Part shown: in pieces, positions 24,001-33,000 of the stretch
Numbering within the stretch: the first letter of the stretch is position 1
Layout of the letters: each line of letters starts with the position of its first letter
Assembly (NCBI RefSeq): GCF_056712565.1
Contig: NZ_JBWXXM010000002.1
DNA: 64,000 bases
Direction: 5' to 3' (one strand)
DNA from: a plasmid
Made by a program: the position numbers

Positions 24001-27000
24001 TGATGGTGAAATCACTGAGAGAGAATTTTCAGTTCAAATCAAGGTGTCGCCTGAAATGTATTCAACCTGTTTCACTGGTATAAATCAGGGTGATGAGTTG
24101 ATGGTCTCCGGTTATATTGTTGTCGATACTATTATGATTGAAGGGAGAGAACATCCTCTTGACTACATGAGAGTGGTAGCAACAAGTAAGTTGGCTCACA
24201 TACCTAAACCTCTAAAAGGTTTTGGACAAAGTAGCTTTAATCAGATCTGACATTAAACCCACCCTAAAGGGGAGAAATCCCTTCATGGGATTTCTCCTTT
24301 TGGAGTCCCCATGAAACAAAAATTTAGGGCTACTGCAATAAGTAGTAATCAACTTAGTTTTTTTTCTATACTCGATATAGATGAAGATGAAATAACGCAA
24401 ATAGTTGATTCACCCAAAGAGCATTTAAATGATGCTTACACGTCCGGATTAAACTTTAAATCAGAAGAAAGTAACATTTCTGAGATAAATTATGATTCTG
24501 AAAGGCGTGAAAATCACCTTTATGAAAAATCCAAATTACTTAAAAATCAGATTTTGCATACAATTAATTTTGCAGCAGAAACAGATTATCTATATACGGT
24601 TGAAGAATATAACCCAGATTTGGGTGGTCTGGTAATAGAATGGACCCCTGAGGATGTGTATGTTGTTTTTCTATCCGCTATGGAAGAGTCTTTGGAAATC
24701 ATTAAAGAACTAGTGTTGAGGAGAAAGTTATTCTTCAAAGATGACAATGGTAATATCACAGTGAATCCACTTTTAGAAGCTGAAACACGGTGGTATATGT
24801 CAAAATCATTTGAATACACTTGTTTATGTCATGGACTTGATGCATGTGAATTTAGAGCGGAATTAAAATCATGGCTCTATTATCATTCGCATCGTTCGAT
24901 TAGTGAAAACACGAAATTAGCTGAATGCAGGAATGATGATGAAATCATTTTGCATGATTGCAATGACGATATGGGCTGGGACATCTTCTTTGATCAGGAT
25001 TATTTAATGTCAGAAAAAAAACTGGCTGTTAAATGGACTGACAGGGAAATTATGGATGTTTACATAAAAGCTTTTAAATCCACATTAGAGTTGTTTGACG
25101 AGCTTGTTTCATGTGATCTGTTAACTAAACGAAACGCTTTTGGCAAGTTAGAAATCAATCCAATATTCGAAAATCATTTTGAATGGATCATGTCTGAAGC
25201 TTTTGAAATAGTGGGAAATCATCTTGGTTATAATGTGCCTCAAATCAGGAAACTGATGGCAACTATTTGCCAAATGAATCTCAAATAAAATGCCACTGGC
25301 AAACATCTGCCAGAGGGCGGTGTTTGCATTTTACCGGAGTTAAAAATGTCTAATGCCGCTATGAAGTTAAATGAAACATCTTCTGATGCTTATGAAAAAT
25401 TAGAAGCTCTTCTTTCCCCGGATGTTATAAAGTTAAAACATTATGTGGATAAAGGTGAGTATCTTTTAGTTCTAGCAAAGGACCTTTTTGGTATTCCAGA
25501 AATGGATCCAAAGATGGCTGTGCCTGTTTTCAAAACTAAAACCTCGTATCGAGCTCCGCTGAACAAAGACTACATACCAAATCCCCGAATACTTGAACAA
25601 GTGGTTAAACTGCTTATCAGTCCGGATATAGATTTAAGTGTGTGTCTTAAAGGTGAGTCCGGTTCTGGCAAGACTGAAATGGTAATGTACATTAGCCACA
25701 TGATGAATTGGCCGCTGACAATTAAGCAGATCAACAGCAATATTCGAGTTGATGAGCTTGAAGGTGAGCGCAGTCTTAATGGTGGTAATACAGGTTTTGT
25801 ACACAGCGATTTGGTAACGGGATTTCGTAATGGTCACCTCATTCTTCTGGATGAAGTGGACAAAATCGATCCTGATACGGCAGCAAAACTTCACATGCCC
25901 ATTGAACGTAAGCCCTGGTCACTCAGTGCTAATGGTGGTGAGGTTATAACTGCTAATGGCTACACGCGATTTATTGGTACTGCAAACACAAACATGAGTG
26001 GAGGCGCTCGCCGGTTCGTTTCTTCTCAACGTCAAGATGCAGCTTTTATAAAGCGGTTCTTGATAGTTGAAATGGAGAAGCCCGACAAAGTTGCTTTAAC
26101 CAATGTGCTTACTAAACGATATAGCTCTTTGCCTTTTCAGGTCATTGAGAAGTTCGTAAGAGTAGCGATTGCAGTAAATGACTCTGGTACAGAAGACAGT
26201 GTGATGGATATTCGTCAATTAGTAGCTTGGGTTGGCACGTCGATGACGTTAAAAACCTTTAGTCTTCTTGACACTTTCAAAATAGCTTTTGCTTCTGCTT
26301 TACCTTTACATGTGGTCGATCTTGTTCTTCAAGCTATAGATCTTTCTCTTGGCGAAGACAAGGATAAATCGCTGGAGTATTTCACAGCAAAAAAGTCGAG
26401 TTAGATGGGATTTGTTATGAAACCTCTGATATTTGTATCTCAGAGTTATCCCATCTTGAATTTAGTGCGTTTTTAAGTACGGATGGTGCTGCTACCATTG
26501 CTATAGCAAAAAACGGAACTAATTTTACTGGACTTATGCAACTGAATAACGACTATTCTTTATTGTTTTATCATGATGGTAAAATAAATATGGAAGGTCT
26601 GATTAAACAAATGGAATTAAAAGGTTATATGTATCAGGGAGCAATGGGCAATGATGATGTTGTTGCTGAGTTTCCCGGTATTCTTTTAATTTCACCAGAG
26701 AAGCTTTAATATCAACCCTATCGGGAAATCTTTCCCGTTGGGGAGGGTTTCCCCTTTTTTTTGGAGAAACCCATGACTTTAAATACTTCAATGCTTAACA
26801 AAGTATCTGCAAAACAAATCTCTGAGAATTTTGCAAAATCATATCCAGATTTACTGGAAGGTGCAGTTATAACAAAAATTGAAATAAGTGGCTGTCAAGG
26901 ATCGCGTCGAACCGATAAAATCGATTTGTCTTATGATGGAGATGATATTACGGATCAAAAAAGCGTATCTAAAAGCGAAGTACGCTGGATTGACATAAAA

Positions 27001-30000: not shown

Positions 30001-33000
30001 CCAATCGGGGCAAAAGGCCCCGGTGGGGCTTTTTGCTCCATGAAGGAATAAGGAGCAAAATATGACTCAGATAAAAACTTACCGTGTAGAACATGAAAAA
30101 GTCGGTGCGATGCATAAAGTCCGTATTTTCGGACGTGTTGGTGAAGTTATAAGCAATGATAGCCCTCAGGAAAGAATCTTCCGCGAAGTCACTATAGCGG
30201 AGGGTAATAGCCAGCAGGCTGCGTTACTTGTAGATAACTACATACAGTGTCTTGAGAATAATGGCTTCACGACTGAAGCATAAATGTTGAGGGCCCCCGG
30301 GCCCTCTTTCTTAAATTCTGCGTTGTGGGTTTCTCCCTGTCTTCTGCACCGCAGAAGGCATTGAGAAACTCACAATGCCAGATAAGAGAGATCATCATGA
30401 CTTATGCATCCCCGGCTCTTCGTCGTAATCCACAGGAAGTATCTGAACACTTTATTAAACTCGTTCATGCTCGAATTGCTGAAGTGTCTGGCTGGAAGTA
30501 TATATTCGAAAGAATACCTGCTTTCAAAGACGCTTGTGCAAAAGCCCCGAGCCAGGTTCCTTGCCCGTTTACTGGCGCAGGGAAATCGAAGTTTCGTTTC
30601 CGACAAAAAGACCTTTATACCGGATGTGCGATCCATAATGACTTTCCGGTAAATGAGTTTTGCGACGGAATTGATGTTCTGGCGAAATATTATGAATTAA
30701 GTAAAACGCAGACTTGCAAAAAGATTCTCTCAGATTTTTTCGGGATGGATCTGCATGCTCCGTTAACTGACGCCGACATTGAAAATGAACGACGCTATAA
30801 ATCAGCAGTTCGTGCCACAGAAACTCTTGACCGAGAGGAAGTGGCAAAGCGAATGCGAAAACTTGATGTGATGTATCACTATACCGGTGAAATCAAGCCT
30901 AATACTCCTGTTGCTTTGTACCTCCGTAATCGTGGGATCTCCCGCTTACTGAGTCACTTACCAAAGGATTTAGGCTTTAATAACCGGATCTACTATTGGG
31001 ATAAAGATAAGCAGAAATCGATTATCTATCCGGGAATGATTGCGATCTATCGTGACACCCGAGGTCGGCCTCTGACTATTCATAGAACATACGTAGACAA
31101 AAATGGTGATAAGGCACCTGTAGAAAATCCAAAGCTGATGATGAAGCCTCCTGCCGATATGACAGGTGGCTCAATTCAGTTGTTTGACCCTCACTATGAT
31201 TCAGGTAGTTCGACCTGGACACTGGGAGTGGCTGAAGGGATCGAGAACGCGCTTTCTGTTGTAGAAGCGACTTCAACACCATGCTGGGCAGCCAGCTCCG
31301 CATGGTGCCTTGAAAACGTTACTGTTCCTGATTTTTTACTGCCTCCGCCGGATGTAAAATCTATAAACTTTTATATCTGGGCGGATAAGGATATTGCTAA
31401 CTCACAAGGCACTCGTGCCGGTATTGAAGCTGCTCAGCGACTTCAAAGCCGCATGGTTGAGTTTTTGGCTAAACGATATCCCGCATCAAAGCTGACAATT
31501 GAAGTCTTCGAACCAGCACAAGATATTCCTGATGGGAAAAAGGGTATCGACTGGAACGATGTTCTCCAGTTAACAGGGCAGGATGGATTCCCGATTCACT
31601 GGGCTCCTGAATGTCTTAATCAGCTGTAACAACGATAACTCCCCCGCTTTTTGCGGGGGGGGTTATCTTATCAATATTATATTTTAAAATTGTATTGATA
31701 AGATAACCGCTTTCCTTCGTGATAATTACCTGCCTTTAAGGTCTTTTCACGGCTGAGATGCTTGCTCAGTTAAATAAATGTGCGGTACTACTGGCTATGG
31801 TCGGTTGTATGACATGGTTATTCCATAAACTATTAAAACCCATAACGGGAGTATTACCGTTATGGTGATGCTCGTCGTTTTACATCGGAGAGCATTTTAA
31901 TGAATTTTCAAATTAACGAAGTTTTTAATAAATTTGCTGCTGTTATAAAATCGCGCATCGTCAATGAACCATCGTCATGCTATTTGCTGCATGATAATGA
32001 GATAGATATAACGATTTTGAAACATAGCATATTAGAAAATGACAGAAACCTGTTGTACGTAGTTCGTCCTTCAGGAACGTGTTTGTTGCGTTGTGACAAA
32101 TATTTCTATCCGAAATATTATCTTCGTTGCCGTGGAGATTATAAGTCATTCATATATGTCCATCTTGATCTACATAGTGGTGAAGCTAAAGAAATCACAT
32201 GGGAGCAAGCAGACGATATGCTGTCTAGTCCAGGAAAACCCCCATTAAAAGGGAATCTTGGACGATTTGAGTATATAAAAGTTGTGGTTGAGGACCTTCG
32301 TATTCGAGGTTACGCTGATTATCTTCCTGCGTATAATCTTGATGACCTTCGCCGTTTTGCCTTACAGGACGACCGCCCATCCCTTGTCAGATACATTGAC
32401 AATGTCATGGCAACGGTCTGATTGATTGCTAATTGATTTACATATTTTCCCTGATGGCCAACCTGCATCAGGGAGGCCTCAATAACGAATGGAGGCTGTA
32501 TGAAGTTAGCTACGGACCTGGTAAAAGCTATTTTGATTAGAAATGGCGTTGAACCAGTAAATATAAGCGAATCATCTAAGTTATCTTTGAAACAACCACT
32601 GACAGAACTTAAATTCAGTTTATATTTGCGAACTGAGCATTTATCTCACTTCCTACCCGGTTATGTTTATTCTATAAAAGAATGTCCACTGTCATATGAC
32701 ATCGGGATCGAAATTCAGAAAATCTTCGAAAGTTTACATTTGTTAAACGAAGAATTTGAATCCCTCGGTTTTGTTTCTGTATGGATAGAAATGCATCAAA
32801 GCATTTTTGAACAAAGTCGGTTTAAGAAAAGTAACTTTACTTTTCGGGAGGAAGAGGTCGAGCTTGCTAAAGGGCTTGTTTGTTCTCACAATTCACAAAT
32901 AAGTAATGCGGCTTATTTCTGGCTTCAGCACTTTGAGGAGTTTATGATTTATGTTCGTAATAAGCTTATCGACCTCTTTCGAGAGGCCTATGACCTGATC

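Follow-up and report, generated by a model that had tools for sequence, protein, structure and literature searches.

A CobS/CobT-like AAA+, vWA and DUF3150 gene module in the conjugative backbone of IncHI2 plasmids, with a possible role in plasmid establishment

We analysed a 64,000-nucleotide stretch (64 kb; hereafter, the window) of contig NZ_JBWXXM010000002.1 (NCBI RefSeq assembly GCF_056712565.1), which is R478-like IncHI2 plasmid DNA, and found that a gene block at 25346-31629 encodes an AAA+ ATPase of the MoxR/CobS class, a DUF3150 protein, a von Willebrand factor A (vWA) protein with a predicted CobT architecture (hereafter, the adaptor) and a primase-like protein. Homologues of these genes recur together in highly divergent replicons, and the module is almost certainly a conserved backbone function of MOBH/MPF-F conjugative elements. 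The AAA+, vWA and DUF3150 proteins probably work together as a MoxR-vWA-type machine, although both the complex and the part played by DUF3150 are ones that we infer. The overall reading that we favour, tentatively and with slightly less than even confidence, is that of a motor-adaptor-client machine resembling CobS-CobT-CobN that acts in plasmid establishment, most likely in defence evasion. All four main open reading frames (ORFs) were recovered where the original prediction had placed them, on the + strand:

25346-26404, + strand: MoxR/CobS-class AAA+ ATPase, homologue of Vcrx089 (AAA_5, 9e-28)
26761-27900, + strand: DUF3150 protein (PF11348, 3.8e-23); the RefSeq start is the ATG at 26773
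27978-29990, + strand: vWA adaptor, predicted CobT architecture (VWA, 7.8e-7)
30397-31629 (RefSeq), + strand: DUF7146 and Toprim_3 primase-like protein; the ORF opens at a GTG at 30325

The block lies just 3' of the Tra2 genes trhU, trhN and trhI, within a long run of co-directional genes. Its 6.3-kb stretch is 100% identical to IncHI2A, MOBH, MPF-F plasmids, in agreement with the IncHI-type context that had been proposed, and it matches 1122 PLSDB records at an identity of at least 99%. In total, >1400 PLSDB plasmids match this DNA, while relatives of the DUF3150 protein are encoded on ~2000 plasmids in that database and relatives of the ATPase on ~3000.

Architecture and conservation of the module

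Profile searches bore out the AAA+, vWA/MIDAS and toprim assignments of the original prediction, as well as the likeness that it had seen to CobS and CobT. The ATPase carries a Walker A motif (GESGSGKT) at residue 103 and a Walker B motif (LILLDE) at residue 165, and residues K109, E170, N214, R237 and R290, which cover Walker A and B, sensor 1, the arginine finger and sensor 2, are invariant among 10 homologues. Its nearest solved structures are the midasin AAA module (7e-21), NorQ (1.8e-9), CobS (2e-8) and CbbQ. The alignment with CobS spans nearly the full length of the protein, the Pfam CbbQ_C domain was not detected in it, and its phage matches were limited to distant cobS-like proteins.

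The adaptor is predicted to have the three-part architecture of CobT (i.e., an M48-like N-domain, an acidic linker and a C-terminal vWA domain with a MIDAS). The MIDAS is complete, with D507/S509/S511, T578 and D606 invariant among homologues; the linker (residues ~250-440) is acidic, and a net charge of -72 was calculated for the protein as a whole. Profile matches to CobT (4e-7) and NorD (8e-6) accompany a basic segment just before the vWA domain (residues 466-488) that is conserved (G469, G483, V487 and F488 are invariant) and occupies the position of the CobT shaft. The N-domain was modelled with a predicted local distance difference test score (pLDDT) of 92.5, and its best structural matches are M48 peptidases. 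It retains a conserved HExxH...E motif (HEAGH at residues 70-74, together with D133/E137); HExxH is present in 10 of 12 adaptors, and E71, D133 and E137 are invariant. Solved CobT has an M48C-like N-domain, a disordered linker of ~90 residues and a vWA domain with a preceding shaft; the shaft enters the CobS ring, and CobN sits between the two domains of CobT (preprint 10.64898/2026.07.21.739949). We found no sequence-level link between the adaptor N-domain and solved CobT, and the CobT link thus rests on the fold and on the precomputed Pfam CobT matches of the adaptor homologues at loci L015 and L018.

This likeness raises the question of whether the module is a genuine cobaltochelatase or has some other auxiliary function in vitamin B12 synthesis, which we regard as extremely improbable. 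Such a role could draw on weak similarity to the CobS and CobT models, on the database names of some DUF3150 proteins and on a preprint that treats DUF3150 as a vitamin gene from BLAST names (10.1101/285403). The ATPase, however, scored 34.4 bits against a TIGR01650 cut-off of 558.55, and the adaptor scored 33.3 bits against a TIGR02442 cut-off of 779.45. The window contains no CobN or other cob gene, the ATPase is nearer to midasin and NorQ than to CobS, and the genomic context is always one of conjugation and DNA metabolism. We thus rejected cobalamin synthesis, as the original prediction had done from the plasmid context. Databases (AFDB/UniProt; PHROG 249 and 17276) often name DUF3150, ATPase and vWA proteins "cobalamin/porphyrin biosynthesis", which for plasmid genes is an unsupported transfer of names; some DUF3150 proteins carry the UniProt name "cobalamine biosynthesis protein".

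The 379-aa middle protein had been described as lacking any recognisable motif. It belongs in fact to Pfam family DUF3150 (PF11348, 3.8e-23, model positions 1-241 of 257). Relatives form 118 representative clusters in a search of 1.84 billion representative proteins, and a further search recovered 344 structural relatives in AFDB50, where all of the top matches listed are DUF3150 proteins. One representative match, P0133 (2761 aa), was discarded as a false positive, a eukaryotic coiled-coil protein. The AlphaFold2 model (pLDDT 84) consists of a small sheet and long helices; a PDB fold search with this model returned generic helical-bundle matches only, with no informative neighbour. A search for the module in phage genomes had also been proposed, and tblastn against 50,697 phage records gave no match to the DUF3150 protein.

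In the DUF3150 protein, residues ~15-310 make up a structured core, and beyond it runs a disordered acidic tail that ends in tryptophan. This ending is a family trait: the C-terminal residue is F, W or Y in 72 of 84 diverse DUF3150 members, compared to a background of 9-15% (p ~2e-62), and the usual ending after the disordered acidic tail is [DE]-x-[FW]-G-x-[FW]. The window protein ends in ...IELKGW (window 27700-27900) and the IncC homologue in ...DDDGDYFF (locus L010, 14900-15080). The acidic IncC protein Vcrx090 shares the aromatic ending (...EQEDHFF). The DUF3150 tail resembles the C-terminal tip of single-stranded DNA-binding protein (SSB) and looks like a docking or threading tag, or a tag for docking to the AAA+ protein. 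The feature is consistent with a role for DUF3150 as a client or third subunit.

Scattering of the genes in related replicons had been named in advance as a result that would refute the original prediction. We compared loci from IncHI1B, an Aeromonas plasmid, a Vibrio plasmid, IncC, genome assemblies and metagenome contigs, whose DUF3150 proteins are 17-57% identical; neighbourhoods came from 10 exact-protein contig look-ups and from plasmid records, and neighbours were classed by local profiles (individual loci are cited by number). A same-family AAA_5 gene lies upstream of the DUF3150 gene in all 12 independent loci with sequence there, and a same-family vWA protein is encoded in 13 of 14 loci, at pairwise identities among module homologues as low as ~17-25%. 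The genes thus co-occur across divergent replicons rather than being scattered. The Toprim gene is linked in six loci: it adjoins the module in four (including L002, L011 and L013), precedes the ATPase gene in L003 (Aeromonas) and lies between the DUF3150 and vWA genes in L009. Upstream of the module there is usually a UvrD-like helicase of the TrhI family, along with an SSB, and the conjugative nature of the elements is marked by TraN, FlhDC-type activators or DtrJ. The module is backbone in IncHI1, IncHI2, IncHI1B and IncC and, by the literature, in SXT/R391.

It could be argued that these genes are mere syntenic neighbours with separate functions, only the AAA+ protein serving anti-restriction and the DUF3150 and vWA proteins being unrelated or decaying. 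In IncC, four genes lie between the AAA+ gene and the DUF3150-vWA pair, one element has no vWA gene, and HExxH has been lost in some adaptors, all of which would fit. We nonetheless consider this unlikely: linkage holds at 17-25% identity and through shuffling of the gene order, MoxR-class ATPases are known to pair with vWA partners (CobT, NorD and CbbO), and the MIDAS and ATPase residues are invariant.

A candidate role in plasmid establishment

The window ATPase is homologous to Vcrx089 of IncC plasmids (27% identity over 275 residues, E 1e-27 by BLASTP) and occupies a syntenic position. IncC also encodes homologues of the DUF3150 protein (E 2e-5) and of the adaptor (22% identity over the full length, including an HEAAH motif), in the order ATPase, 302-aa protein, ssb, bet, exo, DUF3150, vWA. 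By this gene order, the genes from ATPase to vWA would be vcrx089 to vcrx095 and the DUF3150 gene would be vcrx094. Deletion of vcrx089-090 lowered IncC transfer 25-fold into Vibrio cholerae proficient in type I restriction-modification (R-M) and not into an hsdR mutant, and the defect was complemented from the recipient and not from the donor (Roy et al. 2020, PMC7498323). In plasmid pKAZ3, deletion of vcrx089-090 increased restriction by EcoBI 424-fold and by EcoKI 906-fold (Dimitriu et al. 2024, PMC11602122). Relief from type I restriction as the plasmid enters a recipient is known only for the IncC plasmids pVCR94 and pKAZ3 (PMC7498323, PMC11602122). The IncC genes ssb-bet-exo repair CRISPR-induced breaks (PMC7498323). 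Complementary DNA primed in vcrx094 contains vcrx087, vcrx089 and bet (PMC7498323), which indicates that the DUF3150 gene, if it is vcrx094 as the gene order suggests, is co-transcribed with the ATPase gene. The SXT/R391 and IncC operon promoters, Ps089 and Pvcrx087, give the strongest ChIP-exo peaks of the master activators SetCD and AcaCD.

The original prediction had suggested that the system may be uncharacterised, which does not hold in full, because the ATPase family appears in AntiDefenseFinder as half of the two-gene system "vcrx089_090". We found no report that tests the DUF3150 or vWA partners, and neither is named in the papers that we read on this system. Searches of the literature on IncHI or Rts1 mutants likewise yielded no data on the module genes.

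By analogy with CobS6-CobT-CobN and NorQ6-NorD-NorB, we propose a motor-adaptor-client mechanism. The AAA+ protein would form a hexameric, ATP-driven motor ring, and the vWA protein would serve as a CobT-type adaptor whose basic segment, at the position of the shaft, is engaged by the ring. The adaptor MIDAS would grip the client by an acidic group. DUF3150 would act as a dedicated third subunit or a client that docks through its acidic tail and aromatic C-terminus. The machine would then remodel a protein target in the recipient cell, presumably while the incoming plasmid establishes. Judging from the IncC phenotype, this target probably belongs to host defence, and a system such as type I restriction would be neutralised, as is reported for IncC Vcrx089 together with Vcrx090; alternatively, it may be one of the linked DNA-processing partners (e.g., primase, SSB or helicase).

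Several observations weigh against this reading. Vcrx090 has no BLASTP similarity to the 325-aa protein encoded upstream of the window ATPase, and jackhmmer found no Vcrx090 homologue among all ORFs of the 64-kb window or in 13 other loci. Since vcrx089 and vcrx090 have only ever been deleted together, the anti-restriction factor could be Vcrx090 alone. A transposon-sequencing (TnSeq) screen of IncC flagged only vcrx089-093; its ratio set Cas+ against Cas- recipients, all of them HsdR+, and is thus uninformative on any restriction role of vcrx094 and vcrx095. Deletions of s067, s068 and s070 in SXT, which by gene order probably include the DUF3150 and vWA homologues, reduced transfer between E. 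coli strains by at most 10-fold (PMC2791158). HExxH is degenerate in 2 of 12 adaptors (two lineages without the histidines), so proteolysis is unlikely to be essential. One element, represented by L016 (a metagenome contig, 8143-11296) and L017, encodes an SSB, an AAA_5/CbbQ_C protein and DUF3150, with no vWA gene within 7.5 kb. Finally, the SSB, helicase and primase neighbours fit a DNA-processing role equally well. Owing to the absence of Vcrx090, the joint deletions, the TnSeq design and the SXT result, anti-restriction by the IncHI2 module is something that we infer from the IncC homologue. The establishment or anti-defence role suggested in the original prediction thus finds indirect experimental backing in IncC Vcrx089 (PMC7498323, PMC11602122), and for the IncHI2 module, which lacks the Vcrx090 partner, we hold defence evasion to be plausible at somewhat less than an even chance.

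The main rival is a chaperone for DNA processing or replication establishment, which would load, activate or recycle the primase, SSB, UvrD-like helicase or relaxase on the transferred single strand and so assist complementary-strand synthesis. The DUF7146/Toprim gene adjoins or lies inside the module in its six divergent loci, SSB and UvrD-like helicase genes lie upstream in most loci, the IncC triad brackets ssb-bet-exo, and the DUF3150 tail is like the SSB C-terminal tip. Set against this, the sole phenotype of a homologue is restriction-specific and is lost in hsdR deletion recipients, the SXT deletions in this region lowered transfer by no more than 10-fold, and, apart from the primase, the module proteins are all acidic and show no recognisable DNA-binding domain. 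We judge this rival to be possible and on the unlikely side.

AAA+/vWA pairs are the cores of some conflict systems. The module might accordingly be a MoxR-vWA defence or conflict system carried as plasmid cargo, which guards the host from phages or rival elements, and the position of the L016 element next to R-M genes could be read in this way. We find this improbable, since the module sits in conserved backbone beside tra genes rather than in variable cargo, contains no effector domain (nuclease, TIR or protease cascade) and is part of the transfer regulon in IncC/SXT. A known defence system was also rejected: PADLOC gave only P-loop-level matches for the ATPase (E >= 2e-4 over ~35-80 residues), no match for the DUF3150 or vWA protein and one marginal match for the primase-like protein (RTasDnaG-like, E 0.0044). 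Flanking the L016 element, which alone departs from the triad, are an Eco47II-type R-M pair on one side and a LlaJI-like system on the other.

A broader form of the establishment reading, which we hold to be speculative and doubtful, is that the AAA+ protein, adaptor and DUF3150, perhaps joined by the 325-aa protein and the primase, make up a new class of plasmid establishment machine. In it, a chelatase-type motor-adaptor would seize and remodel, or cleave through the HExxH of its M48-like domain, a protein of host defence or DNA metabolism (for instance, a translocating type I restriction complex), and DUF3150 would be the targeting subunit via its SSB-tip-like C-terminus. If this were true, the two-gene "vcrx089_090" would belong to a larger conserved machine. 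IncHI2, IncHI1, IncHI1B and IncC plasmids are major vehicles of last-line resistance genes such as mcr, NDM and tet(X4), and a mechanism for surviving entry into restricting hosts would partly set plasmid host range. For the ATPase family, a strong anti-restriction phenotype has been published (400-900-fold, EcoKI/EcoBI) and no mechanism; the recurrent CobT-like adaptor and DUF3150 beside it give a testable motor-adaptor-client model and name the missing partners. The analysis also corrects a widespread mis-annotation as cobalamin biosynthesis, and it gives DUF3150 a genomic context and a tail feature.

Neighbouring genes and intergenic hairpins

Three genes had been proposed, and the module is larger: the primase is itself a linked member, a conserved acidic 325-aa repeat protein is encoded upstream as a candidate partner, and the block has small ORFs of 57 and 73 aa that had gone unremarked. 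The neighbouring genes are:

20764-22548, + strand: TrhI UvrD-like helicase, a conserved upstream neighbour of the block with homologues upstream in 6 other loci
22943-23815: 290-aa hypothetical protein, flanks the module
23873-24250, + strand: short divergent SSB/OB-fold protein, 125 aa, in the same co-directional block
24311-25288, + strand: acidic 325-aa repeat protein, isoelectric point 4.7, directly upstream of the AAA+ gene
26536-26709, + strand: 57-aa RefSeq-annotated ORF in a variable slot between the AAA+ and DUF3150 genes
30062-30283, + strand: 73-aa protein, annotated ORF
31900-32421: 173-aa hypothetical protein, flanks the module

The primase-like protein matched DUF7146 (4e-19), Toprim_3 (7.5e-12) and the PHROG DNA primase family (1.7e-27), and by these domains it is predicted to be a Zn-ribbon/Toprim primase of the DnaG/TraC-like kind. 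The 325-aa protein consists of two tandem repeats of ~90 aa (BLASTP 2e-11 between halves), and neither it nor the 290-aa neighbour has a Pfam or PHROG match. Jackhmmer and hidden Markov model searches placed the 325-aa family immediately 5' of the AAA+ gene in a further five divergent loci (L002, L005, L008, L011 and L015); given this recurrence, it may be a fourth module partner. The slot between the AAA+ and DUF3150 genes (26405-26709) holds a gene of 117-201 aa in other elements, and the holders are weakly related (phmmer 1e-5 to 1e-7). The 57-aa window ORF aligns with these slot genes only at its ends and may thus be a decayed remnant of one. The 73-aa protein is conserved only in close IncHI relatives, its sole homologue among the examined loci being in IncHI1B.

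Jackhmmer ties the 125-aa SSB/OB-fold protein, whose ORF carries a hypothetical-protein annotation, to the Pfam SSB genes of L004, L008 and L011. This protein lacks the usual acidic tail or IPF tip, while the IncC SSB has DDDIPF plus nine extra residues. The 290-aa and 173-aa flanking proteins are paralogues (jackhmmer 4e-49), and a hydrophobic C-terminal segment of the former (KD19 1.86 at residue 268) may be a tail anchor. At least four co-directional hypothetical genes of ~290-320 aa follow the primase-like gene (32500-36378 and beyond); in the reference plasmid, next come genes for a Tus-like protein, an integrase and Hha, and then the ter operon. In L003 (the Aeromonas plasmid, 13803-14027) and in L009 (a metagenome element, 10646-10900), the module has a small gene for a 2Fe-2S ferredoxin (Fer2) beside it.

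Terminator-like sites are enriched, with 21 observed compared to 7.2+-2.6 in shuffles. A hairpin had been predicted between each gene, and most gaps do fold significantly (z-scores of -3.5 to -5.4 at 26712-26772, 27901-27977, 29991-30061 and 31630-31680); the exceptions are 26405-26475, which begins where the AAA+ gene ends (z -1.1), and 30284-30330 (z -0.9), where no significant fold was found. The hairpins are:

26716-26772, + strand: double hairpin with a U8 run and a 14-bp stem (region 26712-26772, -30 kcal/mol, z -3.5)
27921-27946, strand not assigned: hairpin between the DUF3150 and vWA genes (region 27901-27977, -28.9 kcal/mol, z -5.1)
30004-30024, + strand: terminator-like hairpin after the vWA gene (region 29991-30061, z -4.6)
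31639-31661, + strand: strong GC hairpin that closes the block (z -5.4)

In the first of these, base pairing in the second hairpin spans GGAG, the Shine-Dalgarno sequence of the DUF3150 gene, and this hairpin also has the U8 run; the arrangement suggests that the double hairpin is a terminator or translational attenuator that sets the ratio of ATPase to DUF3150. It recalls a report of translational attenuation 5' of bet in SXT. Rfam gave no RNA family in 20000-34000.

Comparison with known motor-adaptor systems

Part of this picture is known already, namely an ATPase family with an anti-restriction phenotype that is mechanistically opaque. What is new is a probable machine of the CobST/NorQD type that has a new third partner and a proposed setting in plasmid establishment. 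Compared to the published vcrx089-vcrx090 system of IncC/SXT, the IncHI2 ATPase is homologous and stands at the same backbone position after traN and the helicase gene, and DUF3150 and vWA homologues lie in the same IncC operon. The two differ in that IncHI2 lacks Vcrx090 and that vcrx090-ssb-bet-exo interrupt the IncC triad. As published, the system comprises two genes with no mention of DUF3150 or vWA, and its phenotype is known for IncC and not for IncHI.

The IncHI2 module shares with CobS-CobT-CobN a MoxR-class AAA_5 motor, a three-part adaptor, a segment at the shaft position and a three-gene logic. Its third protein, however, is DUF3150 (~375 aa, a novel helical fold) rather than the ~1200-aa CobN chelatase, its adaptor keeps HExxH...E, and its context is a conjugative plasmid rather than a cob operon. 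With NorQ-NorD (iron insertion into nitric oxide reductase) and CbbQ-CbbO (a Rubisco activase), it shares the pairing of AAA_5 with vWA/MIDAS and the remodelling of a specific client that we propose. The clients of those pairs are metabolic enzymes encoded nearby, whereas no such client is found at the plasmid module, and the N-terminal regions of NorD and CbbO differ from that of the plasmid adaptor. Finally, RavA-ViaA, other MoxR-vWA pairs and midasin are alike in that a midasin AAA module is the best solved match of the ATPase and in the MIDAS grip on a client; in contrast to RavA-ViaA and midasin, the plasmid module has another domain architecture, in which LARA and triple-helical domains are absent, and it has no tie to ribosome biogenesis.

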